This document shows positions 21,766 to 40,828 of a stretch of DNA of 64,000 nucleotides, piece by piece. The notes under the pieces are model-generated. The model had not been told where the DNA came from and did no database searches. It saw nothing but the letters and a program-made list of their open reading frames with translations. The stretch is taken from positions 14,538-78,537 of the forward strand of contig CAYLPT010000070.1 in assembly GCA_964385645.1 (NCBI GenBank). The letters are read 5' to 3'. Each line of letters starts with the position of its first letter. The stretch's first letter is position 1. The translations under genes were made by a program, and so were the position numbers. Source of the stretch: an uncultured bacterium. GTDB lineage: Bacteria > Armatimonadota > Hebobacteria > Hebobacterales > Hebobacteraceae.

Positions 21766-23769
21766 ATGCGGCAGCTGAGCCCCAGGGAGGGACAACCAGC
21801 GCCTGAGCGGCGGCCGGCGGCGGGGGAGGTGACGGCGCCGGTCATCGTCGCCGCGGTCGTGCTGTTGCTCCTCCTCGGGGTGGTCGGCTTCTGGGTGGAC
21901 GTGTACGAGCGGGCGGCGGTCCGCTTCGGCGCGGGCGTGCCGGCCTCCGGCCCCTTCGCCCTGTTGTTCCTGTTGGCGGCCGCGGCGGCGCTGTGGCCCG
22001 CGGGGAGCCGGTTCGGGCTGACCCGGCGGCAGGCGCTCGCCATCTACATGGTCGTGCTCGTAGGCGCGCCGGTGGTCTCCTACAAGGTGATGGAGAGCGT
22101 GCTCGTTCACGCCACCATCCAACGCTACCTCGGCATGACCACCAACCTGCTCTGGCAGGACACGTTCCTGCCGGTGATCCCCAACTGGCTGGCCCCCGAA
22201 GACTGGACGGCCGTCGAGGGCTTCTACCACGGACTGGGCGCGGTTCCGTGGTCGGTGTGGTGGACGCCGCTGGCGGTCTGGTGCTCGTTCATGATCGCGC
22301 TGGCGGTCTGCTCGGTCTGCCTCATGTTGCTGGTGCAGCGCCAGTGGATCTCCCACGAGCGCCTCACCTTCCCTCTCGCCCAGATCCCGCTGGAGATGGT
22401 GGCGGAGACCAGCCCCGAGCGCGGCGGGCCGCGGGCGCGGCTCACCACCGCCTCCCTATTCTGGGCGGGCCTGATCGTGTCGCTGGTGGTGAGCGCGCTG
22501 CACACCGTCGCGCGCTACGCGCCCGCCGTCCCCTCCATCCCCCTCGGGCCGGTGCGGGTGATGGAATACCATCCGGTGGGCCCGCGCGCCGGCCTGGACG
22601 AGATGAACCTCGTGTTCTTCCCGTGGCTCATCGCCATCGCTTACCTGATCCCGAAGGACCTCTCCTTCTCCTGCTGGTTCTTCTGGTTCGTCCGGCTCAG
22701 CCTGCACGTGGCGGCCATCGCGGGCGGCTGCGCGCCCCAGCGGCCGGCCTTCCACTGGGTCAGCGAGTTCCCCGCGCCCCTCTTCCAGGGCACCGGCGCG
22801 GTGCTGGCCATCTCCGGGCTGGCGCTGTGGTCGGCGCGCCGTCACCTGGGGCGCGCGGTGCGCATCGCGCTAAGCCGCGAGTCTGGCCGCGCGGACGCCG
22901 ATGAGCCGATCCCGTATCGCTGGAGCCTGCTCGCCCTCGCGCTCTCCTTCGCCTGGATGGTCTACATCTGCTGGCTGACCGGAAGCCGCCTCGTCGTGGG
23001 GGTCGCGCTTATCGCGTTCATGCTCATCTACTACACGACCTGGGTGCGTCTTCGCGCGGAGACGGGGCTGGGCTTCTTCCCCTATCCGCTGTTCGTCCAC
23101 CAGTCCATTGTGGTGCCCTTCGGCACCGCGGGCTTCACGCCGCAGGAGATGATGACCATCCACGCCGTACACTGGGCCTACCACGGCGGCGGCGACAGCT
23201 TCGAGATCGTCCCCGGCAACGCGCTCGAGTCCATGAAGATCGGGGATGCGGCCGGCATCAGGATGAGGTCGGTGCTTATCGGGATGGCGGTGGGGTTCGT
23301 CGCGGTGGTCATCCTGGGCGCCTATATCACGCTCACCGGCATCTACCACTACGGGTTCCTGAACACGGGCCCGCGTGCGGTGGAGCACGAGTTGAGGGTG
23401 TACAGCTGGAGCCTGCACAGCCACTTCACTGACCCCGCGGGGACCGACGTGCCAGGCGCCATCGCGATGGGGGCCGGCGCGCTGGTGACCGCGCTTCTGG
23501 GCGCGATGCGGCTGCGGTTCTGGTGGTGGCCCTTCCACCCGATCGGCTACCTCGCTGCGCATACGTGGATCATGTACATGTACTGGTCGCCCTTCATGAT
23601 TGGGTGGCTCGCGAAGACCCTCGTGGTCCGCTACGGCGGGCTGCGGCTCTACCGGCGGACGGTGCCGCTGGCGATAGGCGCCATCGCCGGGGACCTGGTC
23701 AACGAGGTACTCTGGGGAGCGGTGACCTTGATCACGGGCGTGCCCTTCCGGCCCAGCCAGCTCTGGTGA
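21766..23769 (+). CDS. Large polytopic integral membrane protein of unknown function (667 aa, at least 14 predicted TM helices, Trp/Tyr-rich)
   Basis: Long ORF with strong coding character and many hydrophobic helices; no recognisable catalytic motif; lies between an oxidoreductase gene and a CAZyme cluster. Confidence 0.7.
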   Translation: MRQLSPREGQPAPERRPAAGEVTAPVIVAAVVLLLLLGVVGFWVDVYERAAVRFGAGVPASGPFALLFLLAAAAALWPAGSRFGLTRRQALAIYMVVLVGAPVVSYKVMESVLVHATIQRYLGMTTNLLWQDTFLPVIPNWLAPEDWTAVEGFYHGLGAVPWSVWWTPLAVWCSFMIALAVCSVCLMLLVQRQWISHERLTFPLAQIPLEMVAETSPERGGPRARLTTASLFWAGLIVSLVVSALHTVARYAPAVPSIPLGPVRVMEYHPVGPRAGLDEMNLVFFPWLIAIAYLIPKDLSFSCWFFWFVRLSLHVAAIAGGCAPQRPAFHWVSEFPAPLFQGTGAVLAISGLALWSARRHLGRAVRIALSRESGRADADEPIPYRWSLLALALSFAWMVYICWLTGSRLVVGVALIAFMLIYYTTWVRLRAETGLGFFPYPLFVHQSIVVPFGTAGFTPQEMMTIHAVHWAYHGGGDSFEIVPGNALESMKIGDAAGIRMRSVLIGMAVGFVAVVILGAYITLTGIYHYGFLNTGPRAVEHELRVYSWSLHSHFTDPAGTDVPGAIAMGAGALVTALLGAMRLRFWWWPFHPIGYLAAHTWIMYMYWSPFMIGWLAKTLVVRYGGLRLYRRTVPLAIGAIAGDLVNEVLWGAVTLITGVPFRPSQLW

Positions 23770-23840
23770 GCGGCCGCGGGGCGGCAGCGTGCGCGTCCCT
23801 CACGGGCAAGAGGCAAGCTCCTGCCCTGCGGGCCTACGGC

Positions 23841-25589
23841 CTACTCGGCCTTGCGGAGGCGGACGGCGATGGGGCGGCCCGCGGGGGGCCGGAGGGTGAA
23901 CTCTCCCGAGCGAGCGCCACTTAGCGGGGTGACCGTCATCTCCCAGGTGTCGAGCAGGTCAACGTGGTAAGTGTTGCCCGGGGGGGTGCGGAAGGTGTGC
24001 TCGCCATGGGCCTCCCGGCCGAAGTAGAAGAGCGCGTAGGCGTCGCCCTTAGCGGCCCCCGGGACCTCCCCGCCCCAGTCCACGGGGTCGAGGCCGCGGG
24101 GCGGGCCCTCCTCGATCATGCGCCTGAGGAAGGCGATCCGGGGCGGGCTCTGGCCGTGAAGGACGCCGCCCTTAGACCACCACAGGATGTCCTCGGGGTG
24201 CCGGTAGGTCTCGCCGTGGCCGACGTAGCAGCCGGCGACCGTCCCGACCCAGAAGCGGTGCACCATCTCCTGCGGTGATAGGTTACCCCAGCCCTGCTCG
24301 ATGTCGCCCTCGTAGACCACCTCGTCGAAGACGATCGGCTTACGGTACTGGTCCCTGAGCGGCTCCGCGCGGCCCGGCTCCTCGACGTGCCAGCCGCTCT
24401 GGACGCTGGCGTGGGTAACCCAGGGCTTGGTATGGTCGTACCAGACGCGGCCGTTGTGGATCGAGCGCAGGCGCCCGTATGGGTCGCTGTCGCGGACGAT
24501 CTGGAAGAAGCGGTCCCAGTCCTCCATGCGCTTGTTCCCGGGGCTCGCCGTGTCCTCGTCCGTGAAGCCAGGCATGAAGTCGAACTCGTTGGCGAGGGAC
24601 CACCACACATTGCGGTAGGCCGCCAGCCGCGCCACCACGTAGCGTAGGTACCGATCGTCGCTCTCCGAGTCCATCTTCGCGAAGCCCCAGCGGTCATAGG
24701 GGTGGAAGAGGATGATGTCGGCCTCGATGCCGAGGGCCATCAGCTCGCCGACACGCCGCTCGAGGTGACGGAAGAACTCGGGATTGAAGCGGGTGAAGTC
24801 CCAGCCGCCCCCCTCACCCCGCGCGAACGGATAGCGTGGCGGCTCGTTCTTGTTGTAGAGATAGTCCTTGGGGAAGACACACATGCGCAGCTTGTTGAAG
24901 GGAGCCGCGGCCAGCGTCTCCAGCGTCTGCGCCTCGAGCTCCTCCCCTTGGTGGATCCAGGCATAGCACGTGGTGCCCACCTGGTAGTAAGGCGTGCCGT
25001 CGGCGTAGGCGAAGTGATGGGTGTCGCGCACGCGCACCGGCCCGCGGTTGCCCCTGGAGGGGGGCACGCACTCGAACGAGCCGCGCCTGCCCGTCAGCTC
25101 CGGCCGGTTGCTCTGGGTCTCGTAGCTCCAGCGCCCGGGCGCGTCGGGCATGAAACGCACGCGGTAGGTCCCGCCGCCGTCGTAGAAGCCGGCGACCTCG
25201 ACCGCCTCGCCCCCGCGTGAGAAGCGCGCCGACAGCTCCACATCGAGGAACGGGTTGCCGTCGGCCGGCCCCTCCAGCGCCACCTCGAACACCCCCCACT
25301 GCTCGACGGCGCCAGCACCGCCCATGTCATCTCCTCCTGGGTGGTTCCTGCTCCCGACGGTGCTCGGAGTTCGACGCGGCCGCCGCGGGTCCTGTTCCGC
25401 CACTCCGGCGGCCCACGCTTCGTTCACAGTCGAGAAGGCGTCGGCGATAGACAGGGTTGTGTTCTCCCGCGGGAGCTCGACAGGGCTGGGACGCGCTCCG
25501 GCTGGAGGCGCGGCGGCCATGAGCCCGAACCCCAGCGCCCACAAAGCCGCGAGCACCTCGCGCTGGAAGCCAGTCGTTCCTCTGCCCAT
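23841..25589 (-). CDS. Secreted glycoside hydrolase, GH140-like (DUF5060 N-domain + DUF4038 catalytic domain)
   Basis: Signal peptide; DUF4038-type motifs ([17 protein letters not shown]..., [25 protein letters not shown]), the family that includes apiosidase GH140. Confidence 0.75.
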
Positions 25590-25761
25590 CCGTCAGTCGT
25601 CCTGCCTGTGTGGTCGCCACTGTGCGCTCGAGCCGCAGTGGCCCCGTCAGACTCCCTGCCACAGCGTCAGCCAGCCGTCGCCCGAAGGGCGAGTGTCTCG
25701 GCGCCTCCGCCCTCATCTAGGCTGGCCCGCGCCTGACGCCGCCTCAGGTTGGCCTAGCCAC

Positions 25762-27726
25762 CTATCCAGGGCTCTGCTCCACTGCCCGCCGCCGCAGCTC
25801 CAGCGCCCACCGCGTCCCGTCCAGCATCACCTCTACCCGCCCCTCCTGCGAGGCTGTGAGTCTGGCAGACTCGGCCGGGGCCACCTGAGAGGGCCGCGGC
25901 GCGAGCACCGACACGAGGACGGCGCGGGCCCGCCGGTGGAGCGGCGACACCGAGAGATAGCTGAACCCCTGCTCCCGCCGCCGGGGGGCCGCATCCCACG
26001 AGGGCACGTAGTCGGAGGTAAGCCTGACTACTCTGATCGTGCGACCCGCGGCCTCGTCAGGCCACAGAAGGTCCAAGTCCAGAGCCGCCCTCTCCGCGCT
26101 TAGCGCAATCCGCCCTCGGTGCAGGTCGCGTAGGTCCGCCTGTCCAGCGAACTGCCATAAGCACTCTAGCCGGCGCGGCTCGTCCAGCTCGACATCATCC
26201 ACCACTAGCACTCGCCCGCTCGGCACGAGTATGAGATGCCGATCGAAGCGCTTCACCTCCGGCCCGTAGGCGGCGGCGCCCTCCCCGACGACATAGGTGT
26301 ACTCTGGGGCGGCCTTCATGAGCGTCACTTCGCCGCGGTGCCGCTCGCCCCACCGCTGGCCGCGGCCGTCCACCAGAAGGGTGCTGTGGCCCTCGGTGCT
26401 GTTGGCGGGGTAGTCCCAGCGCCGAGAGCCGGTATCGAAGAATCCCCCGGCGTGGTCGTAGTGCCAGATCCCGGCGTCCACGATGAGCCGCTCGCCGAAC
26501 GCGTTCACGATCACGGAGTTGATGTCCAGATGCGAGTGATTGGCAGTGGTCTCCCCCGTCTTGAGGCCGAGGTAGACCGCCTGCGGCGACCAATCGCTGC
26601 GGACCACCGTGGCGCCGGTGCGGGCGAAGGTGCGGGCAAGGGGCAGGTCGTCCGGGGGGCGCGGTGGGGGTAGATCGGCGCGCCAGAGGAGGGAGAAGGG
26701 AGTCCATGTCTGGAGGCGATCGGCGAGCCACCGCGCGTGTGCGTCGCCGGTGCGCGCGGCGAGCAGCAGCAGCAGTTCGCCGGAGGGCGGGGCATACCGG
26801 TCGTCGCCGAAGTTGAATGACCCGAGGTCGGGGGTGGTCATGTACAGCGCGAACTGGCCCGTCTTCTGAAGATAGGGGTGAGAGAACAGGTTCACTGCGC
26901 CGTCGCTAAGGGCCCTTAGCGCCTCGGCGAACCACGCCGTGCGACCGATCCCGTAGCTCCAGTAGCCAAGCCCCTCGACGTAGCTGCCGTCAGCGGGGTT
27001 GGCGTCGAGCGTGGCGAGCACCCCGAGGAGCGACTCGCGGAGCGCCTGCCGCGCCCCGGGCCACTCCCCGGCCAGGGCGACGGCGCCCGCGCCCATCTCG
27101 CCGCAGATAACCGCCCGCCAGTTGTGGAGGGAATCGGCCCACCACTCGGTCCGGCCCTGGTGCGCGCGGAGGAAGAGGGATAGGCCGCGCTCGATGATCG
27201 CCTCCCGCCAGCGGCTGCGCTGAGTGGGCGCCAACTCCCCGTGGAGCCAGTCGTACACCCATGCAACCTCTGCCACAGAGTGTGCGACCCCCAGGTCCAC
27301 GGTCAGGCCCATGGCGCGATGAGTGGTGAGCACCCAGTCAGGCTCGTCGAGGCGCCGCTCGACAGCGGCCATGAGATGGTCGGCGTACTCGCGCCGGCCC
27401 GAGAGCAGGTAGGCGAGGCCTACGGCGGCGGTCGTGCCCCATCCCGAGCCGGACTCGAGCGCGGCGTCGGCGGCCTGGCGAAGGCGCTCCCAGTCGTCCG
27501 GGTACCGGGCGACCAGCTCCGGCAGCCGGGCGCGGTCGCCGGGGGACAGGAAGAGGCGCGGCCGGGGCAGGTCCGGCGGCATCTCCCAGTGGTCGAAGGC
27601 GTGCAGGAGGCGGTCGGCGTGGGACATGTTCTGCTCCTTCCCGGCGCGCGCGATCCCGAGGCGTCCCCAGCCGCTGAGGCCACCGACGGCAAACGCGGCC
27701 CACCTCAAGAACTCGCGTCGTCTCAT
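25762..27726 (-). CDS. Heparinase II/III-like polysaccharide lyase with twin-arginine (Tat) signal
   Basis: MRRREFLRWAAFAVGGLSGWG Tat motif; alginate-lyase-like α/α toroid N-domain and heparinase II/III-like C-domain (NHSHLDINSVIVNAFGERLIVDAG, characteristic His/Asn cluster). Confidence 0.75.
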   Translation of the reverse strand: MRRREFLRWAAFAVGGLSGWGRLGIARAGKEQNMSHADRLLHAFDHWEMPPDLPRPRLFLSPGDRARLPELVARYPDDWERLRQAADAALESGSGWGTTAAVGLAYLLSGRREYADHLMAAVERRLDEPDWVLTTHRAMGLTVDLGVAHSVAEVAWVYDWLHGELAPTQRSRWREAIIERGLSLFLRAHQGRTEWWADSLHNWRAVICGEMGAGAVALAGEWPGARQALRESLLGVLATLDANPADGSYVEGLGYWSYGIGRTAWFAEALRALSDGAVNLFSHPYLQKTGQFALYMTTPDLGSFNFGDDRYAPPSGELLLLLAARTGDAHARWLADRLQTWTPFSLLWRADLPPPRPPDDLPLARTFARTGATVVRSDWSPQAVYLGLKTGETTANHSHLDINSVIVNAFGERLIVDAGIWHYDHAGGFFDTGSRRWDYPANSTEGHSTLLVDGRGQRWGERHRGEVTLMKAAPEYTYVVGEGAAAYGPEVKRFDRHLILVPSGRVLVVDDVELDEPRRLECLWQFAGQADLRDLHRGRIALSAERAALDLDLLWPDEAAGRTIRVVRLTSDYVPSWDAAPRRREQGFSYLSVSPLHRRARAVLVSVLAPRPSQVAPAESARLTASQEGRVEVMLDGTRWALELRRRAVEQSPG

Positions 27727-27800
27727 CGCTTAGCGCGATCTTCCATGCTCACCACTACTGAGCAGGCACTCCAGTCGGTGTCGCTGACCCGCAGCGCATC

Positions 27801-28943
27801 TCAGCGAGCGCCCGCTTGCTCGTACACATCCAGGTAGCGCCTCACCACCCGCGCCCAGTCGAGCTCGCGGGCGGCCTCGCGCGCCGCCTCGCCGAGTCGG
27901 CGCCGCAGCCCGGCGTCGCCGAGAACCTCGGCGAGCGCCCCCGCCAGCGCCGCCGCTGACCCCGCCGCGAACAGCCGCGCCGTTCGGCCGTCACACAGCA
28001 GCTCCCGCAGGCCGCCCACGTCGCTCGCGACGATAGCCTTCGCCATTGCCATCGCCTCCAGGGGCTTGAGCGGCGTCACTGTCTCTGTGGCGCGCGTGGA
28101 CAGACGCGGGTAGACAACCGCGTGCGCCGCCGCGTAGAGAGCTTGCACCTCCGAGTGGGGCACCGGCGGCGCCACCGTCGCGCCCTCCCCCACCGCGCGG
28201 GCGGCCTCAGCGATCCGCGCCCGGTGCTCCCCCTGCCCGACGATGAGAAGCTGCACCTGCGGCGCAGACCGCCGGACAACCGAGAACGCCTCCAGCAACA
28301 GCTCCAGGCCCTCGTACGCTCTTAGTGCGCCGAGATAGAGCACCCGGGGCCCGCCCGGGAGCTCCGCGGCCGGGGTGAACCTCGCTGCGTCGACCCCGTT
28401 GGGCACAATGTGGAGCTTGGCGGGCGCGACCCCGCGCTTCACCAGGTCATCTCGCAGCCCGCGGCAGATGGCCACCACCGCGTCGGCGCGTGCGCACACC
28501 GCGGCTTCGGTGCGGCGCGCCAGCCGATAGCGAAGCGACCGTCCCCTCATCGCCTCCTCCCACAGGCCCCGCACCTCGTACACCACCGGCAGCCCCAGGC
28601 GCCGGCCGGCCTGGATCGCCGCCAGACCGCACAGAACCGGCGAGTGCGCGTGGATCAGCCGCACATCACCCCGCGCGCTGGCGATCTCCCGGATGCGTCG
28701 CGCCAGCACCCGGCACCGCGACCAGTCCCTCAACCACACGCTGCGCGCCCGCCGCTCGGGCTGGCACCGGTAGTGAAAGACGCCCTCAACATCGCCCTCG
28801 TGGGCGGCGGGATGGCGCGGGGAGGTTACGATAAGAGGGTCAAGTCCGAGGGCCCGCTGGTGCGCAACTATGGCTGCCGTGCGGACTGTGTAGCCGCTGC
28901 TGATCTCCGGCAGCGCGTACTGCACCACGTGCAGGACCGCCAC
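27801..28943 (-). CDS. Glycosyltransferase family 4 (GT-B, RfaB-like)
   Basis: MAVLHVVQYALPEISSGYTVR GT4 N-terminus; EX7E-type region (LYLGALRAYEGLELLLEAF...IVGQGEH..., PLEAMAMAKAIVASDVGGLRELL). Confidence 0.85.
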   Translation of the reverse strand: MAVLHVVQYALPEISSGYTVRTAAIVAHQRALGLDPLIVTSPRHPAAHEGDVEGVFHYRCQPERRARSVWLRDWSRCRVLARRIREIASARGDVRLIHAHSPVLCGLAAIQAGRRLGLPVVYEVRGLWEEAMRGRSLRYRLARRTEAAVCARADAVVAICRGLRDDLVKRGVAPAKLHIVPNGVDAARFTPAAELPGGPRVLYLGALRAYEGLELLLEAFSVVRRSAPQVQLLIVGQGEHRARIAEAARAVGEGATVAPPVPHSEVQALYAAAHAVVYPRLSTRATETVTPLKPLEAMAMAKAIVASDVGGLRELLCDGRTARLFAAGSAAALAGALAEVLGDAGLRRRLGEAAREAARELDWARVVRRYLDVYEQAGAR

Positions 28944-28944
28944 C

Positions 28945-30132
28945 TCAGGCCTCCCCTTGAGGGAGGCGCGCGGGCTCCCAGGTCGGCGCGGTCCGGCCGG
29001 CGATCCACAGCCCGAGCGCGACGAAGCTGGCGAGTGCGATCATGTCGAAGTGCGCAGCCAGGCGAGCCCAACGCAGCCGGCCGACCGCGGGGACCGCCCA
29101 ACCCATCGCCCCGACCAGATAGAGCACGACCTGGGCGGCGAAGAAGGCCGACAGGGTTGGGCTGCCGAGCGCCGTCCCCCAGCCGGCCCCGACGAGCATC
29201 GCCCCGAAGAAGACCCCCTGCACCTCCCGGAGCAGCTTGTGCGAGACGAGCTGCCACAGCACCAGCAGCCGGCCCCTGCGCAGCGTCGGCCAGACCAGCG
29301 AGACCATCTGAGCGATGGCCCGCGACATGATGCGCACCTTCCGCCGATACTCCGCGCCCAGGCTCGGTGCCGCCGGCTCCACTGACTTGGCCTCCGGCTC
29401 CAACACCACGGCATAACCCTGAAGCAGGGCCTCAAAGGGAACGCGGAAGTCGCTAACATCGCGGGGGCGCAGCGGCCGGTAGATCTCCCGCCTTATCGCG
29501 TAGATAGAGCCGTTCGCCCCCAGCAGGGAACCCAACGACGACTCGAGCGCCTTCACGCGCTGCTCGTAGCGCCAGTAGGCGCCCTCCGTATCGGCCGTGC
29601 CCTCGCCGTGGCGGTAGTGGAGCTGACCGCTCACCGCGGCTACGCGGGCGTCGGACATCGCGGCCACGAGCCTGCTGACCGCGTCCCGCGCGAAGAGCGC
29701 GTTCGCGTCAGTCATCACGATGACCTCCGCGGCGATCGCCGAGACACCCGCGTTCAGCGCGGCCGACTTCCCCTGTCGCCCCTCCAGCCGCACCAGCCGC
29801 ACCCGGCCGGTGCGCTCCGCGTACCCCTGCACTATCTCGTCGGTCGCATCCGTGCTGCCATCCGAGACGACCACGAGATCGAGCAGCTCCGCCGAGTAGT
29901 CTTGCTCCAGGGTGTTCTCGATCTTCGCGCCGATGACATCGCCCTCGTTCCACGCCGCGACGAGCAGCGTCACCCGGGGCGCGCAGCTCCCGGTTGAGGG
30001 CCGGAAGGGGCGCAGCTTCGCCAGTACCCAGAGCAGTGCGGGATAGCCGAAGTAGGCGTAGAGCAGAATGGCAAGCGCTCCCCAGGATAGCAGGAAGGCG
30101 ATAGTAGGCTGTGCGGAGTCGGACTCGCTCAT
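28945..30132 (-). CDS. Membrane-embedded glycosyltransferase family 2 (possible processive synthase)
   Basis: N-terminal TM helices, GT-A core (VVVSDGSTDATDEIV, VIVMTDANA), then C-terminal TM bundle; starts 2 nt from the GT4 gene. Confidence 0.8.
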   Translation of the reverse strand: MSESDSAQPTIAFLLSWGALAILLYAYFGYPALLWVLAKLRPFRPSTGSCAPRVTLLVAAWNEGDVIGAKIENTLEQDYSAELLDLVVVSDGSTDATDEIVQGYAERTGRVRLVRLEGRQGKSAALNAGVSAIAAEVIVMTDANALFARDAVSRLVAAMSDARVAAVSGQLHYRHGEGTADTEGAYWRYEQRVKALESSLGSLLGANGSIYAIRREIYRPLRPRDVSDFRVPFEALLQGYAVVLEPEAKSVEPAAPSLGAEYRRKVRIMSRAIAQMVSLVWPTLRRGRLLVLWQLVSHKLLREVQGVFFGAMLVGAGWGTALGSPTLSAFFAAQVVLYLVGAMGWAVPAVGRLRWARLAAHFDMIALASFVALGLWIAGRTAPTWEPARLPQGEA

Positions 30133-30231
30133 GCCTGCGAACCCTGCGCACTCAGGCGCTTGACCTCTAGTAACCCCTCCGCCTGCCTGGAGGCTTGGCG
30201 GCGGGGGCAGGACTCCCTCGCGACTGCGCCG

Positions 30232-31500
30232 CTAGAGGCTGATGACGCGGAAGCCGGCCTGCTCCCACTTCGCCCGCGGCAGAGCGTCCCGAGTGTCGAA
30301 CAGAAGCCGCCGGCGCATCCGGGCCCCGATGGCCTCCGGCTCGAAGAACGAGAACTCGCGGTGGTCGGTGAGCAGCAGCACGCAGTCGGCGCCGCTCACG
30401 GAGGCCTCCAGGTCATCCAGCTCCCAGCGGAAGCGCTTGACGTGGAAGTCCACAACGCTGACTCGGGCGCCCTTCGCCTCCAGCGCCTCCAGCACGTGCA
30501 GCGCCGGCGTCTCACGGGCATCATCCACATTCGCCTTGTAGGCCACGCCCCAGACCGACACCTTCGGGTCGGCCACCCCCGCCAGCTCCGCCATCACCCG
30601 TTCCGCCACCCACGCCGGCTGGCTGTCGTTGGTCTCCCGGGCGGTGCGCACCAGGCGGGCCAGCTTGGGCGCCGCGTCCACCAGGAACCAGGGGTCCACC
30701 GGGATGCAGTGGCCGCCCACGCCGGGCCCAGGGCTCAGGATGTTGACCCGGGGGTGGCGGTTCGCCAGCGCGATGACCTCCCGGACGTTGGCCCCGAACT
30801 TGTGGCTGATGCGCGCGATCTCGTTCGCGAAGGCGATGCCCACATCTCGCGAGGCGTTCTCCACCAGCTTGGCGAGCTCGGCGACGATCGCGCTGGTCAC
30901 CAGAACTTCGCCCTCCACCACCTGGCGGTAGATGGCGGCCGCCCTCTCGCCGCTCGCCGGGTCAATGCCGCCGACCACCCGATCGTTCTGCACCAGCTCG
31001 GTCAGGATGTTGCCTGGCAGGATGCGCTCGGGGCAGTGCGCGACGAAGAGGTCCTCGCCCGGCTTCAGCCCCGACTCCGCCAGTATGCCTGTCAGCAGCC
31101 CGCCCGTCGTGCCCGGCGGCACGGTGGACTCCAGCACCACCAGGTTGCCCGGGCGCAGGTGCGGGATCAGCGAGCGCGCCGCCTGCTCCACACACGAGAG
31201 ATCCGGCCTGTGGTCCTCCCCCACCGGCGTCGGCACGGCGATGATGAACACGTCTGCCGGCGCGGGGGTGACCTGAGCGCGGAGGTTGCCCGAGTTCACC
31301 GCCGCCTGCACCACGGTCTTGAGGCCCACCTCCTCGATCGGCACCTCACCCGCGTTCACGGCCTCGACCAGCTCCGCGCGAAGGTCAACGCCGGTCACCC
31401 GGAAGCCGTTCACGGCCAGCATCGCGGCCGTCGGCAGGCCGACGTACCCGAGGCCAAGGATGCAGATCACCTCGGCCGTCGGCTCACGCAGCTCGCCCAT
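30232..31500 (-). CDS. UDP-sugar 6-dehydrogenase (UDP-ManNAc/UDP-GlcNAc dehydrogenase, WecC/WbpA-like)
   Basis: ICILGLGYVGLPTA NAD-binding motif; catalytic GGHCIPVDP; 422 aa, typical of the UDP-glucose/GDP-mannose dehydrogenase family. Confidence 0.88.
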   Translation of the reverse strand: MGELREPTAEVICILGLGYVGLPTAAMLAVNGFRVTGVDLRAELVEAVNAGEVPIEEVGLKTVVQAAVNSGNLRAQVTPAPADVFIIAVPTPVGEDHRPDLSCVEQAARSLIPHLRPGNLVVLESTVPPGTTGGLLTGILAESGLKPGEDLFVAHCPERILPGNILTELVQNDRVVGGIDPASGERAAAIYRQVVEGEVLVTSAIVAELAKLVENASRDVGIAFANEIARISHKFGANVREVIALANRHPRVNILSPGPGVGGHCIPVDPWFLVDAAPKLARLVRTARETNDSQPAWVAERVMAELAGVADPKVSVWGVAYKANVDDARETPALHVLEALEAKGARVSVVDFHVKRFRWELDDLEASVSGADCVLLLTDHREFSFFEPEAIGARMRRRLLFDTRDALPRAKWEQAGFRVISL

Positions 31501-31747
31501 GCGAGGGGACCCTCCTGATCGGGGCAGTTGGCGTCAGGGTTCCACTAGCCAGCGCGCTCTCCCTTCAGCGAGGCGCTGCCGGAGGCGGCGGAACAGGACC
31601 TGCGGCGGCCGCGCCCAACTCCGAGCACCGTCGGGAGCAGAAACTACGGGGCGGCAGGCGACTCGGCGGGGGCCAGCCGGGAGTACCAGGTCGTCGCCGA
31701 GGACGAAGCCTACCCTGCAGTCCATCGCCACGAGGCGGGCGAGATGA

Positions 31748-32029
31748 TCCGCGAGCTCGACCGGGGAGCCGGGATTCCCTGTCTCTATCCCCCTGGGCAT
31801 CATCCGCAACCCACGCCCCACGGACCTGCTCGAGAAAGCGGTCTTCGGCGATGACCAGGACCCCGGATTCGTGGATGTGGGCGACAATGACTTCCGCTTG
31901 CGCCAAGACGCGGCAGCCTTCGAGAGACTCTCCTGTCGCCCCATCCCCGCGGAGGGGATCGGACTCTACGAGCATCCCTTGCGGGCGAGCTGGCCCGTGG
32001 ATGCTACCCTCTCGGTCCTGCTCGAGTGA
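31748..32029 (+). pseudogene. C-terminal remnant of a right-handed β-helix (pectate-lyase-fold) protein; no start codon, truncated
   Basis: Open frame without a start codon translating to ...GFPVSIPLGIIRNPRPTDLLEKAVFGDDQDPGFVDVGDNDFRLRQDAAAFERLSCRPIPAEGIGLYEHP..., resembling the conserved C-terminus (FVDPANGDFRLKPGSPA...GFKPIPF.KIGLY) of β-helix proteins; lies in a 650-bp intergenic gap. Confidence 0.4.
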
Positions 32030-32157
32030 GCGGCCGGGCAGTCTCGCTCACACTCCCCGCCGATGACCGGATGCAGGTGCCTGCGCAGCAGCGACGAACC
32101 CAGCGCCGCGCGGCGCCGATTGGCACGCGCGACACCAGAGCCGGTGGGAGGCCTGAG

Positions 32158-34539
32158 ATGAGGTACGGCTTCTTCGACGACGAGGCCAGGGAGTACGTGA
32201 TAACCAGGCCGGACACCCCGAGGTCGTGGAGCAACTACCTGGGCGACACCAAGTACGGGGCGATCATCACCAACAACGCGGGCGGCTACGGCTTCTACCA
32301 GTCGGGAGCGCGGGGGCGGTTCCTGCGGCTGCTCTTCAACGGCATCCCGATGGACCAGCCGGGCCGCTATGTCTACCTCCGCGACCGGGACAGCGGCGAC
32401 TACTGGTCGGCCTCCTGGCAGCCGGTGGGCAAGCCACTCGATGAGTACGAGTCCACCTGCCGCCACGGCACCGGGTACACGGTCATCGAGTCTCGCTACG
32501 GCGGGATCGCCACCGAAACCACTTACTTCGTGCCACTGGGCCAGGCGTTCGAGTACTGGCGTGTGCGGGTCACTAACGAGAGCGGGCGGCCGCGCAACCT
32601 GTCCCTCTTCACGTACTGCGAGTTCACGAATCAGTGGAACACTGTGCAGGATCAGGTCAACCTCCAGTACTCCCTGTTCATCGTCCGGGGCGCGCTTACG
32701 GACGGCTTGCTCCGGATCGCGATCGAGGATCACCTGACGCCGGAGTCGGGGGAGTACCTGTATCATCATGTATGGATGGGCCTGGTGGGCGGAGAGGTAA
32801 GGGGGTACGACACGAGCCGTGAGGCCTTCCTCGGTCCGTACCGAAGCTACCACAACCCCGTCGTGGTCGAGGAGGGGAGAACGACCAACAGCGAGGCCTA
32901 TGGGGACAACGCCTGCGGCTGTCTGAGGACGGACTTGACCCTTCAGGCCGGAGAGACCGGAGAGATGCTCGTCCTGCTTGGGATCGGCGATGCCCGGACC
33001 GTCGGCCGGCGGACAACCGCGGAGTACGGCTCGCTGGACCGGGCGGAGGCTGAGCTGAGGATGCTGAAGGCGAACTGGCACGCCAAACTGGGGAGCCTCC
33101 TCGTGGAGACGCCTGACGAGGAGTTCGACCATACGGTCAATGTATGGGGCCTGTACAACTGCCTGGTGTGCTTCGCCTGGTCGCGGTCCGCGAGCCTCGT
33201 GTACAATGGCGAGCGGGATGGGCTGGGCTTTCGCGACTCGGTGCAGGACCTGCTGGGCGTGACGGCCGCGATCCCGGAGGAGGCCCAGGAGCGCCTGGAG
33301 CTGATGCTGACCGGCCAGCTCTCCACCGGCGGTGCCATGCCGATCATCAGGCCGTTCGAGCACCGCCCGGGGCACGAGACGCCCCCGGCCCCTGAGGAAT
33401 ACCGGTCCGACGACTGCCTGTGGTTCTTCGACGCGGTGCCAGCGCTCGTGGGAGAGACTGGGGACCTGCGCTTCTACGAGAAGGTGCTGCCTTACGCGGA
33501 CAGGGGTGAGGCCACTGTCCTGGGCCATCTGCGGCGGGCCCTGGAGTTCAACCTGGAGCGCACCGGCAAGCACGGGCTCCCATGCGGGCTGGCCGCCGAC
33601 TGGAACGACTGCCTGCGGCTCGGCTATCACGGGGAGAGCCTGTTTGTCGCGTTCCAGGTGCGTAGGGGACTCACCACCTACGCAGAGGTCGCGGAGCGCC
33701 TAGGCAAGCGGGAGGAAGCCGCCTGGGCCCTCGCTAAGCGCGATGCCCTCGACTCATGCATCCAGGCCTGCGCCTGGGATGAAGACCGCTTCATATGGGC
33801 CATCGGCGAGGACGGCACGGTCTACGGGACCCGCGCGGCCGAGGAGGGGAGGTGCTATCTGAACACGCAAGTGTGGGCCGTCATAAGTGGGGGCGCCAGC
33901 CCCGAGCAAGCCGCTCGCTGCATGGAGACCGTTCATAGGGAGCTGGCCACCGCTTATGGCCTGATGCTCTCCGCGCCCCCCTTTGTGAAGACCCCGATTG
34001 ACGTGATGCGCGCCGTGGTGTTCAACCCCGGGGTGAAGGAGAACGCAGGGATCTTCAACCACACACAGGGGTGGGCGGTGATGGCGGAGTGTATGCTGGG
34101 GAACGGGGACCGGGCCTGGGAGTACTACCGCGCCTCCATGCCGGCCGCCTACAACGATCGCGCAGAGCTGCGCGAGAGCGAGCCCTATGTCCAGGCGCAG
34201 ACTACATACTCCACCTACTCGCCGCGGGCCGGGAACGCGCGCACGCCCTGGCTGACCGGCGCGGCGGCCTGGTCCTACTACGCCGCCACGCAGCATATAC
34301 TCGGCCTGCGGCCGGAGATAGACGGGCTGCGCATCGCGCCGTGCATCCCCAGCACCTGGGGTGGTTTCAGGGCCACCCGCCGCTTCCGGGGCCGAACCAT
34401 CCGGATCGTGGTTGAGAACCCGGACGCGGTCTGCCACGGCGTCAAGACGCTGACCCTCAACGGCGAGGCGCTGCCCGGCAACCTGCTCCCCGCGGACAAG
34501 CTGCGGGGCGAGAATGAGGTGCGAGCCGTCCTCGGGTAG
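32158..34539 (+). CDS. Glycoside hydrolase family 94 disaccharide phosphorylase (cellobiose/chitobiose/laminaribiose phosphorylase-like)
   Basis: N-terminus MRYGFFDDEAREYVITRPDTPRSWSNYLG...AGGYGFYQS closely parallels characterised cellobiose phosphorylases (MRYGHFDD..REYVIT.P.TP.PW.NYLG); about 790 aa as expected. The track ORF from 32026 is an upstream extension. Confidence 0.88.
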   Translation: MRYGFFDDEAREYVITRPDTPRSWSNYLGDTKYGAIITNNAGGYGFYQSGARGRFLRLLFNGIPMDQPGRYVYLRDRDSGDYWSASWQPVGKPLDEYESTCRHGTGYTVIESRYGGIATETTYFVPLGQAFEYWRVRVTNESGRPRNLSLFTYCEFTNQWNTVQDQVNLQYSLFIVRGALTDGLLRIAIEDHLTPESGEYLYHHVWMGLVGGEVRGYDTSREAFLGPYRSYHNPVVVEEGRTTNSEAYGDNACGCLRTDLTLQAGETGEMLVLLGIGDARTVGRRTTAEYGSLDRAEAELRMLKANWHAKLGSLLVETPDEEFDHTVNVWGLYNCLVCFAWSRSASLVYNGERDGLGFRDSVQDLLGVTAAIPEEAQERLELMLTGQLSTGGAMPIIRPFEHRPGHETPPAPEEYRSDDCLWFFDAVPALVGETGDLRFYEKVLPYADRGEATVLGHLRRALEFNLERTGKHGLPCGLAADWNDCLRLGYHGESLFVAFQVRRGLTTYAEVAERLGKREEAAWALAKRDALDSCIQACAWDEDRFIWAIGEDGTVYGTRAAEEGRCYLNTQVWAVISGGASPEQAARCMETVHRELATAYGLMLSAPPFVKTPIDVMRAVVFNPGVKENAGIFNHTQGWAVMAECMLGNGDRAWEYYRASMPAAYNDRAELRESEPYVQAQTTYSTYSPRAGNARTPWLTGAAAWSYYAATQHILGLRPEIDGLRIAPCIPSTWGGFRATRRFRGRTIRIVVENPDAVCHGVKTLTLNGEALPGNLLPADKLRGENEVRAVLG

Positions 34540-34792
34540 AGCGCCTCCCCAGCGGTAGGGCCATGGGCTCTGCCGATGAGTCGCTGAGAGGGATCTTGCG
34601 CGATAGCTGAAGCCAGCGGCTCGGACTCCGGTCTCGCAGGCCGGCGACCGGTCGGGCCACTTGACCGGGCAGTCGGAGCAGGGACGCGACTCCGGCGCTG
34701 ACTTCGCCGTCCGAAGAGGAGCGGAGCTTCGCATGGGCGAAGGGGGGAGGGTGCTGCAGGTTTGGAGTGAAGGTGGAGGAGGTGACACTGAG

Positions 34793-36829
34793 ATGGCGCG
34801 AGTGCTGCTGACGGCGATGACGCTCATGCTGGTGGGGGAGGCGGCCGGCGCCGCGGCCGCCTCCGGCGGCCTGCGGGTGAGCGAGAACGGGCGCTTCCTG
34901 GTCATCGAGGACGGGCAGCCGTTCTTCTACGTGGGGGACACCGCCTGGGAGCTGTTCCACCGGCTGAACCGGGAGGAGGCCGAGCACTACCTGAGGGATC
35001 GGGCGGGGAAGGGCTTCACCGTCATCCAGGCGGTGGCGCTGGCTGAGTTCGACGGGCTCGAATCACACAACGCCTATGGCGAGGTGCCGCTTATTGAGGG
35101 CGACCCGACGCGGCCCAACGAGCGCTACTTCGAGCACGTGGACTGGGTGGTGGACACAGCCGAGCGTTTGGGGCTGTACATCGGCATGCTTCCCACCTGG
35201 GGCGATAAGTGGAACCGTAAGTGGGGGGTGGGCCCGGAGGTGTTCACGCCCGAAAACGCGGAGGCTTACGGCGAGTGGCTGGGCCGGCGCTACCGCGACA
35301 AGCCGATCATCTGGATCTTGGGCGGGGACCGCAACCCGGAGATCGAGGAGCATCTGGCCATCGTCCGCGCTATGGCGCGGGGCCTGCGCCGCGGCGATGG
35401 CGGTCGGCACCTGATGACCTTCCACCCCCAGGGCGGGGCAAGCTCCTCCCGGTGGTTCCACGACGACGACTGGCTGGACTTCAACATGCTCCAGAGCGGC
35501 CACTCCCGCCGCAACACCCCCAACCACGAGATGATCGCCGCCGACTACGCCCGCACCCCTGTGAAGCCGTGCCTCGATGGCGAGCCCTGCTATGAGAACC
35601 ACCCGGTGAACTGGAACCCCACCTTGGGCCGCTTCGGCGACCACGATGTCCGCAAGGCCGCCTACTGGGCGGTGTTCGCGGGCGCGCACGGGCACACTTA
35701 CGGCTGCCACGAGATCTGGCAGTTCTACGCGCCCGAGCGGCCACCGATCTCCCACGCCATGACCCCCTGGCGGGAGGCGCTCCAGCTCCCCGGCGCGGGG
35801 CAGATGCGACACCTGCGGGCGCTCATGGAATCCCGCCCCTTCCTGTCTCGCATCCCCGATCAGGCGCTTATCGTCCCCGACGCGCCGCCGGAGCCGGCCC
35901 TTACCCACCTACTCTACACGCGGGACGCCGGGGGCAGCGCGGTCTTCTATGTCAACGGGCGGGTGCGGAACCGCGGCATCGTCGCCGGCACGCTGGAGAA
36001 CTGGGACCGCGGGTCTCGGCTGGCGCTCGCCAACGAGCTGACGCGGGAGCGCCCGTGGCTGGGCGAGTACCGCCTGGTGGCCATCTACGACCGCGCGCTG
36101 AGCGCCGCCGAGGCCGCCGCGCGCTTTGCCGCCGGTCCGGCCGCGGCGCCGGAGGACGCCGCCGCGGCCTACCTGTTTCAGGAGCAGGCAGGCACTGTGG
36201 TCCGCGACGAGTCGGGCGGCGGGCTCGACCTGACGATCGCCGACCCGGAGGCGGTGGAGTGGCTGCCCGGCGGGGGCCTGGCAGTGCGATCACCAACCCT
36301 GATCGCCGCCGGCGAGGCGCCGGCGGAGTTGATGTCGAGGATCGTGGCCTCCGGGGCGATCACCATCGAGGCCTGGGTCAAGCCGGCGGACCACCATCAG
36401 GCGGGGCCGGCCCGCATCGTCACCCTCTCCCGCGACACCGTGCAGCGCAACTTCACCCTGGGGCAGGAGGGCGGCGACTACGAGGTTCGGCTGCGGACGA
36501 CACAGACCTCCGACAACGGCCTGCCCGGGCTGGCGACCACCGACCGGGAGGCGCGCCACGTCCAGGCCACCCGGGACGGGGACGGCTCCTACGCCATGGT
36601 CTACCTGCCGGAGGCGGGCCAGCGCGTGACCCTCGACACGAGCGCGCTCTCCGGCGAGCGCCTCCGGGCCTGGTGGTATGACCCGCGCACCGGCCAGGCC
36701 ACCGCGCTGGAGGGCGACTTCCCGGTGGGCGGCCGGCTGGAGTTCACGAGCCCCGAGCAGGGCCCGGACTGGGTGCTGGTGCTGGACGACGCGGCGCGCG
36801 GCTACCCGCCGCCGGGGAGGTCCGGCTAG
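34793..36829 (+). CDS. Secreted GH140-like (DUF4038) glycoside hydrolase with C-terminal LamG-like/β-sandwich domains
   Basis: Signal peptide [27 protein letters not shown]4038 motifs ([49 protein letters not shown]); GAAGGTGGAGGAGG RBS. Confidence 0.75.
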
Positions 36830-36914
36830 GGGGCTGGGCGGACATGCCCGGGGTGTAGCCCAGCCTCTCCGCGCCACCCACGCCGAGGAGGCGGCGCGCG
36901 GGTAGCTGGGCGTC

Positions 36915-37982: not shown

Positions 37983-38179
37983 CGCTAACTCCCTCCTGGC
38001 TGTCGCCCAGGCAGATACGACGGGCACGGGGGCCGCCCCTCTGCGATCACCTCTGCTCTCGCAGCAGGTGTGAGGCCCGGCCGCAGGTGACCCTACCTGG
38101 AGCCGCGGCGCCCGCAGCGGCGGGACGCAGGCGGACACGAGGGCTGAGACCAGGCCGGAGGCGTTCCACTTCGGGTTGG

Positions 38180-39163: not shown

Positions 39164-39540
39164 CCTCTCTCGCTCCTTTCCTCGAGCCGGGGTGCTGCCG
39201 GCTCGACGCGTGGGGAGACGGCGTGTCAGGGCCAGGTCACCAACTTCGACATGGGCGGGGGGCATTCCCCGCTCGCCGCTGGGCGCCGGGAGCTGGCCTG
39301 GCGTGGAGGGCGCGCAATGCCCTGCCACTGGTGAGCGAGGCTGGGGCGCGGCGCCTCGACGGGCACGCCGGCGGCGAGGATCCCGCGGGGAGGAGATGAA
39401 CCAGCGCACCGAGAGAGGCGGAGGTCCTCGGGATGCGGAAACCTGCCCCGCGACCGCGGCCCGGGTGGCGGCCTCGGGCGGGGGGCGGCGCGGGGCCGCT
39501 CCAGCCGAGGTGGTGACTGAGCACGCCTGAGGAGGCGGAG

Positions 39541-40809: not shown

Positions 40810-40828
40810 CCCAGAGAGGAGAGAGACG

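Follow-up and report, generated by a model that had tools for sequence, protein, structure and literature searches.

Within a window of 64,000 nt (the whole stretch of DNA analysed, from contig CAYLPT010000070.1 of an uncultured bacterium of the Armatimonadota; Hebobacteria), four adjacent minus-strand genes (25762-31500) most likely form a compact operon, predicted to provide an acidic amino-sugar surface polymer and an exported enzyme that cuts it. These genes encode a UDP-sugar 6-dehydrogenase, a membrane GT2 glycosyltransferase, a GT4 glycosyltransferase and a heparinase II/III-like lyase (Table 1). We give about an even chance to the reading that this operon makes and then cuts its own glycan. 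It is drawn from the gene order, the tight spacing, the GT2-GT4 coupling, the conservation of the dehydrogenase-GT2-GT4 triad and the heparinase-like genes found beside the triad and, at distant loci, only where a dehydrogenase is present. The intact lyase residues, the coding-like Tat leader and the diderm host (TonB-dependent receptors and a secretin are encoded in the window) also argue for it, as does the lack of Wzx, Wzy, an initiating phosphoglycosyltransferase and a 2-epimerase among the annotated ORFs of the window. The locus would then plausibly be a 'make and cut' operon in the style of AlgL, one more case of an arrangement already known.

Table 1 Features of the polymer locus and its neighbours in the window
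Feature	Coordinates	Strand	Remarks
UDP-N-acetylhexosamine 6-dehydrogenase (Cap5O/WecC/WbpA clade)	30232..31500	-	422 aa; first gene of the predicted operon; three UDPG_MGDP_dh domains (Pfam)
Membrane-embedded inverting GT2, minimal cellulose-synthase-like fold	28945..30132	-	395 aa; Pfam GT2 families, AF2 model, hydropathy scan
Retaining GT4 glycosyltransferase	27801..28943	-	380 aa; Pfam GT4 N- and C-terminal domains
Putative heparinase II/III-like (PL35/PL15-like) beta-eliminase	25762..27726	-	654 aa precursor
Tat signal peptide MRRREFLRWAAFAVGGLSGWGRLGIARA, lineage-specific N-terminal extension of the lyase	27643..27726	-	RRxFL motif, mildly hydrophobic core, A-x-A site
Embedded ancestral RBS and start codon GGGAAGGAGcagaacATG inside the lyase ORF	27625..27642	-	Orthologue N-termini align at this Met
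Non-coding spacer of ~436 nt, lyase to hydrolase	25326..25761	-	Includes spurious 88-codon N-terminal ORF extension
Putative glycoside hydrolase, DUF5060 / Apiosidase-like (clan GH-A TIM barrel) / DUF5605	23841..25325	-	494 aa, without signal peptide; membership of the unit doubtful
DUF6785/DUF6784 polytopic membrane protein, divergent OPT-superfamily transporter	21766..23769	+	Pfam; convergent on the hydrolase

All five minus-strand ORFs named in the sequence-only reading were present (GC3 0.86-0.92), bordered by plus-strand genes that are convergent at 23769 and divergent at 32026. Searches of Pfam, NCBIfam and PDB agreed with the families it had assigned (Cap5O/WecC-type dehydrogenase, membrane GT2, GT4, heparinase II/III-like and GH140-like TIM barrel). 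The packing of all five genes at 2-100 nt held for the first four, with gaps of 99 nt (dehydrogenase-GT2), 1 nt (GT2-GT4) and 74 nt (GT4-lyase), but not for the hydrolase, which lies about 436 nt beyond the lyase. At the GT2-GT4 junction (GGGGAGGcctgagGTG) the GT4 gene starts with a GTG 1 nt past the GT2 stop, with GGGGAGG 6 nt upstream of the GTG; judged from this arrangement, the two genes are translationally coupled. The ATG of the dehydrogenase is preceded by AGGAGGG. Promoter and terminator scans and intergenic folds at the locus were uninformative.

The hydrolase ORF as called extends to an ATG at 25589 (23841-25589), a start that we rejected. The 88 N-terminal codons (25326-25589) diverge like non-coding DNA: 10.6 % of sites differ from L001, a 95 %-identical contig, and the differences are not concentrated at third positions. 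The ATG itself is missing from L001, lost with a 23-nt deletion, and the alignment with PDB entry 4n0r ('putative glycoside hydrolase'; 8.5e-119) begins at residue 93 of the long ORF. Differences from L001 across the spacer ranged from 10.6 to 18.6 %, again with no codon-position bias. AGGAGG is found upstream of the ATG at 25325, and in L001 the gene is called with a length of 494 aa. The start is therefore most likely 25325, which leaves the protein without a signal peptide and the lyase-hydrolase gap at 436 nt, and this fifth gene is probably outside the operon.

The dehydrogenase scored 427 bits against the NCBIfam NDP-sugar dehydrogenase subfamily (cutoff 190) and 424.5 bits against the WecC equivalog NF008286, which is under the cutoff of 459 and places it outside that equivalog. 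The nearest PDB entries were Cap5O (1.5e-105) and the P. horikoshii UDP-ManNAcA dehydrogenase (3e-93), and the catalytic GGHCIP motif was found in the translation. As the enzyme is of the UDP-HexNAc type (Cap5O/WecC), it points to ManNAcA or GlcNAcA as the acid of the polymer, the substrate being read from the family. A 2-epimerase was found neither among the annotated ORFs of the window nor in the relatives' loci, so UDP-GlcNAc would be an equally likely substrate. The predicted glycan resembles teichuronic acid, ECA or Vi antigen more than a glycosaminoglycan or alginate, and the glycosaminoglycan- or alginate-like polymer proposed earlier does not agree with the type of the dehydrogenase.

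For the GT2, the AF2 model (pLDDT 93.3) and hydropathy predict one N-terminal TM helix, a GT-A core, interface helices and three C-terminal TM helices, and the packing of the core on the interface and TM helices is that of the cellulose-synthase-like fold. The best Foldseek match was PcManGT (6yv7; TM 0.68-0.80), with hyaluronan synthases (Chlorella virus, Xenopus HAS) at ~0.64 and BcsA at ~0.63-0.66. PcManGT of Pyrobaculum calidifontis, a mannosyltransferase that depends on dolichyl phosphate, is non-processive and has a 'half tunnel', was also the top sequence match (1e-24), and its GT-A core is likewise flanked by one TM helix on the N-terminal and three on the C-terminal side. However, identity is only 21-24 %, and PcManGT is archaeal, uses GDP-mannose and acts in N-glycan assembly, whereas the GT2 donor is presumably a UDP-sugar. 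For a complete channel, at least six TM helices or a second subunit would be expected; the 1+3 helices predicted here match the 'half tunnel' of PcManGT, although the GT2 may oligomerise or have a partner. The motifs SDGSTD, TDAN, GANGSIYAIRR and xDF were found in the GT2. The stretch equivalent to QxxRW is E261-Y-R-R-K-V-R-I268, a positional equivalence taken from helix H258-285 of the model and not from structural superposition; R264, R267 and I268 do not vary among 22 family members, all of which have Ile and none Trp at the W position.

The TM bundles described on both sides of the GT2 core thus come down to a single helix on the N-terminal side, and the QxxRW motif that the sequence-only reading had proposed as a check is degenerate. 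The suggested processive-synthase layout was right as to the fold, but the nearest solved relative, in sequence and in fold, is the non-processive PcManGT. That reading had also named what would speak against it, a GT2 of the dolichol-phosphate type and a lyase of non-uronate fold, and half of this was seen, with PcManGT nearest to the GT2. Processivity of the GT2 is unproven. The GT4 matched TIGR04063 ('stp3') with 350 bits, under the cutoff of 442.

The lyase matched Pfam Hepar_II_III_C with 57.6 bits (cutoff 24) and DSE-like_N with 26.2 bits, slightly under the cutoff of 28.7; the latter was also among the precomputed matches. PL35 gave the best PDB match (8khv, 3e-29, ~25 % identity; 8khw, 5e-25), PL15 was nearly as near (3a0o, 2e-21) and DS-epimerase 6hzn followed with 1.3e-11. 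Alignments to 8khv, 8khw, 9o3q and 3a0o covered nearly the full length, both domains included. Residues were mapped from GAGase II (PL35), with Tyr246, His401, Asn191/192 and His403/Asp405/Asp421/His457 as catalytic and metal residues (PMC12088678). The corresponding Y255, H397 and H201-N202 and the metal ligands H399, D401, D417 and H447 are all kept, and they are invariant across both heparinase-like types (alignment A2). In its two domains, catalytic Tyr and His and His/Asp metal site the lyase is like the PL35 GAGases (8khv, 8khw) and PL15 Atu3025 (3a0o), and its His-Asn neutraliser pair is as in alginate-active members. Unlike these enzymes, with which it shares only ~25 % identity, it has a Tat and not a Sec leader and lies in a biosynthetic locus and not a PUL.

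The claimed Tat signal was found at the N terminus of the lyase. A comparison with L001 over 99 nt showed a single synonymous change in the leader region, while intergenic DNA differs by 13-19 % (16 % in the stretch next to it), so the leader evolves as coding DNA; by this comparison it is genuine coding sequence under purifying selection, while export itself is predicted. The leader is absent from orthologues P0002-P0006, and no in-frame upstream extension was found in L002 or L004. The gene calls of L007 and L008 use the internal start (621 aa), and a leaderless cytoplasmic isoform made from the strong internal RBS and ATG is possible. Tat export, called unusual in the sequence-only reading, is not unique in the family: P0272 carries a Tat-like leader too, and a crude screen flagged ~6 of 149 relatives. 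Most members of the nearest clade lack a leader, as does the cytoplasmic PL15 oligo-alginate lyase. The locus would be a clean small case of re-targeting of a cytoplasmic enzyme, in which a Tat leader was added upstream of the old start and the old RBS is still visible.

When related genomes were compared, as the sequence-only reading had advised, the triad was found to be conserved (58-81 % identity). The dehydrogenase orthologues (64-81 % identity) adjoin GT2-GT4, and the GT2-GT4 pair is adjacent in 12 of the 15 loci of close relatives. Heparinase II/III-like genes recur beside the triad (L089, L090 and L091) with all catalytic and metal residues conserved; a signal peptide is present in H090, and the leader of H091 is lipoprotein-like. 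At distant GT2 loci (n=80), heparinase-like genes were found only with a sugar dehydrogenase (6/17 vs 0/63, Fisher p=4e-5), for example in L053 (Roseiconus). The window contains no second heparinase-like gene. Its lyase is not orthologous to the partners in relatives (~25 % identity over 170-200 aa) and adjoins the triad in one species-level lineage only (window, L001, L007 and L008), which counts against the make-and-cut reading. The orthologues of the lyase (54-62 % identity) never adjoin a synthase; one of their settings, between OPT-like DUF6785 genes and DegT aminotransferases, is seen in L004-L006, and elsewhere they stand by themselves or next to a paralogue. Since these orthologues are leaderless and away from synthases, the pairing seen here is, by this comparison, a recent recruitment of the lyase to the triad, specific to the lineage.

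In the proposed mechanism, the Cap5O/WecC-type dehydrogenase would oxidise UDP-ManNAc or UDP-GlcNAc to the uronic acid. The inverting GT2 and the coupled retaining GT4 would join this acid and a second nucleotide sugar at the inner membrane in alternating beta and alpha linkages, on a lipid carrier or the growing chain. The lyase would fold in the cytoplasm, probably take up its metal there, and be exported by Tat to the periplasm of the diderm cell, where its His/Tyr pair and metal site would carry out beta-elimination at 4-linked uronic-acid residues. By analogy with AlgL and alginate, cleavage may control chain length or clear polymer stuck in the periplasm. The leaderless hydrolase, the OPT-like transporter and a GFO/IDH/MocA oxidoreductase, probably in separate transcription units, may salvage imported fragments.

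For the lyase as glycanase of the operon, the evidence consists of its spacing (74 nt, same strand) and the comparative association. Against the make-and-cut reading stand the non-orthologous partner lyases, the leaderless orthologues, the internal start, the catabolic flanks (GH94, GH140, GH20-like and GFO genes), the lack of an outer-membrane exporter encoded nearby, and a GT2 with only four TM helices and no QxxRW Trp. Several of these points would suit a chance juxtaposition, in which the lyase belongs, with the leaderless hydrolase, the OPT-like transporter and the GFO oxidoreductase, to a catabolic or uptake set for an exogenous uronic-acid glycan, and this set abuts an unrelated triad. 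The synthase-free settings of the lyase orthologues, once between DUF6785 and DegT genes, its mostly leaderless nearest clade, the catabolic genes nearby and the 436-nt distance of the hydrolase all favour it. However, the lyase is co-directional with the GT4 and only 74 nt away, the Tat leader gained in this lineage appears to be under purifying selection and fits the exported heparinase-like proteins that accompany the triad at other loci, the window holds no other heparinase-like gene while such genes are strongly associated with dehydrogenase-bearing GT2 loci, and DUF6785 adjacency is weak evidence in so paralogous a family. We consider chance juxtaposition rather unlikely.

A closer contender, held to have somewhat less than an even chance, concerns the synthase: GT2 and GT4 may be single-addition transferases acting on a polyprenyl-phosphate-linked acceptor (a repeat unit, glycolipid or protein-linked glycan) that is completed by genes elsewhere, and not a self-contained synthase. 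PcManGT as best match and the degenerate QxxRW argue for this, as do two relatives: in L092 the GT2-GT4 pair is part of a Wzx/Wzy-type locus that also encodes Wzy_C, a Wzx-type flippase and additional transferases, and in L089 it is accompanied by a Bac_transf initiating enzyme. The lack of such partners among the annotated ORFs of the 64 kb, the additional match of the fold to hyaluronan synthases (TM ~0.64) and an exported polymer-cleaving enzyme, which implies a polymeric product, argue against it. This alternative bears on the assembly mode alone and leaves room for the lyase pairing. The heparinase-like protein could also be a polymer-level C5-epimerase that converts D-ManNAcA or D-GlcNAcA residues to the L-epimers after polymerisation, as dermatan-sulfate and alginate epimerases do. 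Lyases and epimerases of the heparinase fold have a common C5 proton-abstracting His/Tyr machinery, the N-terminal domain falls in DSE-like_N with a match to human DS-epimerase, and heparinase-like genes recur within biosynthetic loci. We regard this as highly improbable, given the much stronger similarity to proven lyases and the complete lyase triad and metal site. The two outcomes, lyase or epimerase, were not told apart by sequence. A bolder reading is very unlikely in our estimate: the four-helix GT2 and the GT4 would be a two-enzyme synthase of a kind not described before, which both polymerises an alternating, HexNAcA-containing glycan and translocates it with no need of Wzx/Wzy or an ABC transporter. 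Its obligatory periplasmic processing partners, perhaps acting as C5-epimerases, would be heparinase-fold enzymes that were recruited several times and are not orthologous (in this locus by a Tat leader on a formerly cytoplasmic oligo-uronate lyase).

Operons that pair the synthesis of a polymer with a glycanase for it are well known (alg/AlgL, bcs/BcsZ, psl/PslG and Vi/VexL), and the current view is not overturned. The alginate operon of Pseudomonas/Azotobacter likewise encodes a nucleotide-sugar 6-dehydrogenase, a membrane GT2 polymerase and a periplasmic lyase for its own polymer. However, its dehydrogenase acts on GDP-mannose (here UDP-HexNAc) and AlgL is a Sec-exported PL5 enzyme (here PL35/PL15-like, Tat), whereas the present locus, whose function is predicted, has a GT4 partner and neither the Alg44, AlgK, AlgE or AlgX scaffold nor an exporter. 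In the Vi locus (TviB/TviC/TviE, with Burkholderiales variants), a UDP-HexNAc 6-dehydrogenase supplies a HexNAcA polymer built by a GT4, and the lyase VexL is encoded; in contrast to the locus studied here, VexL is a beta-helix, pectate-lyase-like enzyme, export is by an ABC transporter and there is no membrane GT2. The comparison points to widespread, uncharacterised loci that join a minimal membrane GT2 and a GT4 with a sugar 6-dehydrogenase and a heparinase-fold enzyme. Such loci are present in Planctomycetota and other phyla as well as in Armatimonadota-like bacteria, and they probably make acidic surface glycans. The lyase could represent a new specificity, cleavage of N-acetylhexosaminuronic-acid polymers, and such an enzyme would help to analyse or degrade teichuronic acids and ECA-like, Vi-like or staphylococcal capsule-like glycans.

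Of the claimed making and trimming of a polymer, the pairing of a synthesis module with a heparinase-like enzyme of intact catalytic residues stood, but the hydrolase as a trimmer did not; leaderless by prediction, it cannot trim an exported polymer. It accompanies the locus only in near-identical contigs and was absent from all other GT2 or lyase loci. The OPT-like transporter is a possible importer of glycan fragments, although the link is weak. Its homologues (~50 % identity) match PF03169 OPT full-length above the cutoff, and paralogues are found close to lyase orthologues (L004) and to relatives of the GT2 (L096 and L103), but the DUF6785 family is highly paralogous, with three copies in 22 kb of L176. 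The closest relative of the hydrolase is 4n0r, an uncharacterised Bacteroides protein. The Apiosidase-like domain of the hydrolase scored 64.5 bits (1.7e-17; cutoff 26.5), above the cutoff but weak. The GH140 apiosidase BT_1012 has a similar Apiosidase-like/DUF4038 TIM-barrel domain (PMC4032388) and a Collagen_bind_2 C-terminal domain, where the hydrolase has DUF5060 and DUF5605 flanks; the weak profile score and these flanks place it outside GH140 of the BT_1012 type. A genuine GH140 is encoded elsewhere in the window, at 34661-36829 (435 bits, 2.6e-130).

The window has a G+C content of about 70 %, and a GC3-based ORF screen recognised five successive minus-strand genes flanked by plus-strand genes, the convergent one ending at 23769 and the divergent one starting at 32026. 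The sequence-only reading had described these five genes as a tightly packed unit in which a processive synthase is paired with a cognate lyase and a hydrolase. Profile and structure-database searches bore out the family labels of all five. The close packing holds for the dehydrogenase, GT2, GT4 and lyase genes, separated by 99, 1 and 74 nt, but not for the hydrolase gene, so that the compact unit is one of four genes, not five. The GT4 gene starts with GTG, with GGGGAGG ahead of it within the 3' end of the GT2 gene.

Coordinates of the features discussed, in the window and in other contigs
Feature	Sequence	Position	Strand	Remarks
DUF6785/DUF6784 protein	window	21766-23769	+	convergent on hydrolase
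4n0r-like hydrolase	window	23841-25325	-	GH140-like
Heparinase II/III-like lyase	window	25762-27726	-	Tat leader
Internal start of lyase	window	27625-27642	-	GGGAAGGAGcagaacATG
GT4	window	27801-28943	-	
GT2	window	28945-30132	-	
Dehydrogenase	window	30232-31500	-	
Indel between dehydrogenase and GH94 gene	window	~31750-31770		divergent region
Extra DNA at the same point	L001	3058-3874		~815 nt
Carbohydrate-processing neighbourhood	window	32026-40809		transcription directed away from operon; GH94 phosphorylase, leaderless GFO/IDH/MocA oxidoreductase, GH20-like protein, FAD_oxidored protein
Genuine GH140	window	within 32026-40809		435 bits; signal peptide, Laminin_G_3 and Collagen_bind_2 domains
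Lower GC3	window	40001-44350		
GC-skew spike (0.216)	window	40001-42000		
PLAT/LH2-domain protein (817 aa)	window	46523-48976	-	adjoins amino-acid permease
Second GT4 (~424 aa)	L089	6981-8255		
Second GT4 (~424 aa)	L053	2312-3595		

The start of the hydrolase gene was examined by comparing substitutions between the window and L001, a 95 % identical contig. The two differ at 3-4 % of coding sites, chiefly third codon positions, and at 13-19 % of intergenic sites. In the 264-nt N-terminal extension of the long hydrolase ORF 10.6 % of sites differ without codon-position bias, and the ATG of this ORF is removed in L001 by a 23-nt deletion; a 582-aa form with a signal peptide was rejected on these two observations. 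Because, in addition, a strong AGGAGG stands ahead of the ATG at 25325, the 4n0r alignment starts at residue 93 of the long ORF and the L001 gene was called at 494 aa, the hydrolase most likely starts at 25325, lacks a signal peptide and lies 436 nt beyond the lyase. It contains DUF5060, Apiosidase-like and DUF5605 domains and is closely related to 4n0r (8.5e-119), a Bacteroides structure that is uncharacterised. Among the GT2 loci compared, such a hydrolase is present only in the near-identical L001. Given this distribution and the gap, the hydrolase is probably not a member of the synthesis-lyase unit. No promoter or terminator was found in a scan of 23500-32200, and none of the four intergenic regions was predicted to fold more stably than its shuffles, which speaks neither for nor against co-transcription. 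No Rfam family or tRNA was detected in the window.

The dehydrogenase, with three UDPG_MGDP_dh domains, reaches 427 bits against the NDP-sugar dehydrogenase subfamily model; against the WecC equivalog it reaches 424.5 bits, slightly below the cutoff of 459. Among solved structures, Cap5O (1.5e-105) and the UDP-ManNAcA dehydrogenase of Pyrococcus come closest. The place of the enzyme in the UDP-HexNAc clade makes ManNAcA or GlcNAcA the expected acid. A 2-epimerase is encoded neither in the window nor in the loci of relatives, from which we infer that UDP-GlcNAc is an equally likely substrate. One inverting and one retaining transferase would give alternating beta/alpha linkages in the glycan, and a beta-eliminase would need a 4-linked uronic acid in it. 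The polymer would thus be closer to teichuronic acid, ECA or Vi antigen than to the glycosaminoglycan- or alginate-like class first proposed, which needs revising in view of the dehydrogenase clade.

In the GT2, hydrophobic segments flank the catalytic core on both sides. A confident AlphaFold model built from 22 homologues (pLDDT 93.3) has one long N-terminal TM helix, the GT-A core, interface helices and three C-terminal TM helices. Foldseek ranked PcManGT first (6yv7, TM 0.68-0.80), followed by hyaluronan synthases (~0.64) and BcsA, and PcManGT is also the top sequence match. PcManGT is reportedly a non-processive, dolichyl-phosphate-dependent mannosyltransferase with a 'half tunnel'. The GT2 family conserves SDGSTD, TDAN, GANGSIYAIRR and the xDF aspartate, and has R-K-V-R-I, with an invariant Ile, at the position expected for QxxRW. 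The cellulose-synthase-like fold of the supposed processive synthase was therefore confirmed, but QxxRW, a defining motif, fails and processivity is only putative. The GT4 resembles TIGR04063 'stp3' (350 bits, below the cutoff of 442). Neither Wzx, Wzy, an initiating transferase nor an outer-membrane exporter was found among the annotated ORFs of the window. The same GT2-GT4 pair lies within a Wzx/Wzy-type locus in one relative (L092) and beside a Bac_transf gene in another (L089). More than one mode of assembly is therefore conceivable. A 537-aa metagenomic protein, P0078, was considered as a GT2-GT4 fusion from its Pfam string and dropped as evidence. In it, 140 C-terminal aa of a GT4 precede a GT2 that stops after residue 321, the gene order being reversed, and the protein is most likely a read-through or mis-call.

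The lyase is composed of DSE-like_N and Hepar_II_III_C domains, and an exact look-up returned no identical gene on record. Among solved structures it matches the PL35 'GAGases' 8khv (3e-29) and 8khw (5e-25) best, followed by the PL15 enzyme Atu3025 (2e-21), and human dermatan-sulfate epimerase more weakly (1e-11). The essential residues of GAGase II, defined by mutagenesis (PMC12088678), were transferred through a HMMER alignment. The acid corresponds to Y255 and the base to H397, H201-N202 is the His-Asn form seen in alginate-active members, and H399, D401, D417 and H447 are the metal ligands. With these residues in place, the lyase is predicted to be equipped for C5-proton abstraction from uronic acid. 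The same chemistry could serve epimerisation in place of elimination, and sequence alone cannot tell the two apart.

The Tat leader of the lyase is real coding sequence, since the 99-nt N-terminal extension (MRRREFLRWAAFAVGGLSGWGRLGIARAGKEQN) shows only one, synonymous, change against L001; export itself is predicted. Lyase orthologues (54-62 % identity) begin exactly at the internal Met34 of the window lyase and have neither a leader nor an in-frame upstream extension. They are found in unrelated contexts: alone next to cpn10, flanked by OPT-like DUF6785 genes and DegT aminotransferases, adjoining a paralogue and a URO-D-like gene, or next to a methyltransferase. An exhaustive search showed the nearest clade to be mostly leaderless, one member (P0272) carrying a Tat-like leader. 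The old start, with a strong ribosome-binding site and an ATG at the exact start of the leaderless orthologues, persists inside the lyase ORF, and in two 100 %-identical contigs (L007 and L008) the gene was called with it. It resembles a relic of the ancestral start, left behind when the Tat leader arose upstream, and a residual second, cytoplasmic isoform might arise from it. In the simplest reading, a formerly cytoplasmic oligo-uronate lyase would have joined the operon in this lineage through an added Tat leader, and would fill the role of a different heparinase-fold enzyme found in relatives.

Exact look-ups and a metagenome scan gave 15 close GT2 loci (58-72 % identity). The GT4 gene is directly downstream of GT2 in 12 of them, and a dehydrogenase orthologue (64-81 % identity) is nearby in six. 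In three (L089, L090 and L091) a heparinase II/III-like gene directly adjoins the dehydrogenase-GT2-GT4 triad. These proteins are of the Hepar_II_III_N type and share only about 25 % identity with the window lyase over 170-200 aa, and two of the three have signal or lipoprotein-like leaders; in the alignment, all catalytic and metal residues are invariant across both types. A distant set comprised 80 GT2 loci among the matches listed (31-44 % identity, many phyla), in which heparinase-like genes occur in 6/17 loci with a sugar dehydrogenase vs 0/63 without one (Fisher p=4e-5). Roseiconus nitratireducens, for example, has the order heparinase-like, GT4, unknown, dehydrogenase, GT4, unknown, GT2, GT2. 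This co-occurrence genuinely supports a functional connection of heparinase-fold enzymes with uronic-acid glycan synthesis by this GT2 family. The pairing of synthesis with a lyase is thus plausible and has comparative backing, with the hydrolase probably outside it, the synthase only putative and the polymer class to be changed. The proposed arrangement is a familiar one, AlgL, BcsZ, PslG and VexL being likewise glycanases encoded in the operon that makes their polymer. Its most attractive details are that a Tat leader would have re-targeted the lyase and that heparinase-fold enzymes would have been recruited repeatedly and non-orthologously.

A second GT4 adjoins the dehydrogenase in 4-5 of the 15 close loci. 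It travels with the dehydrogenase in L089, L096, L099, L100 and L053, and also accompanies the Hepar_II_III_N-type protein where the latter is present. As it is missing from the window, this lineage may hold a reduced version of the ancestral locus.

The DUF6785/DUF6784 protein has homologues (P0184, P0189 and P0205, ~50 % identity) with full-length PF03169 matches above the cutoff, which suggests that the family is a divergent branch of the OPT oligopeptide-transporter superfamily. It is met repeatedly near lyase orthologues and also beside two GT2 relatives, and is highly paralogous in Armatimonadota-like genomes. This recurrence was not accepted as strong evidence for a link to the locus, because a homologue with 74 % identity occurs in an unrelated context, where three paralogues lie within 22 kb (contig L176). 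From gene adjacency, a salvage route is conceivable, from periplasmic cleavage through OPT-like import to cytoplasmic hydrolysis. Literature searches found no paper on DUF6785 or DUF5605, on heparinase with PEP-CTERM, or on heparinase with C5-epimerase and biosynthesis.

The wider neighbourhood includes a GH94 phosphorylase, a genuine GH140, two leaderless GFO/IDH/MocA oxidoreductases and a GH20-like protein. The extra DNA in L001 holds a called 121-aa ORF without a Pfam match. Farther on, ORF translations of the region of lower GC3 resemble a hexapeptide-repeat protein, an FGE-sulfatase-like protein and a transposase-like protein, and the region may be a small insertion. The PLAT/LH2 domain of the 817-aa protein is uncommon in bacteria.
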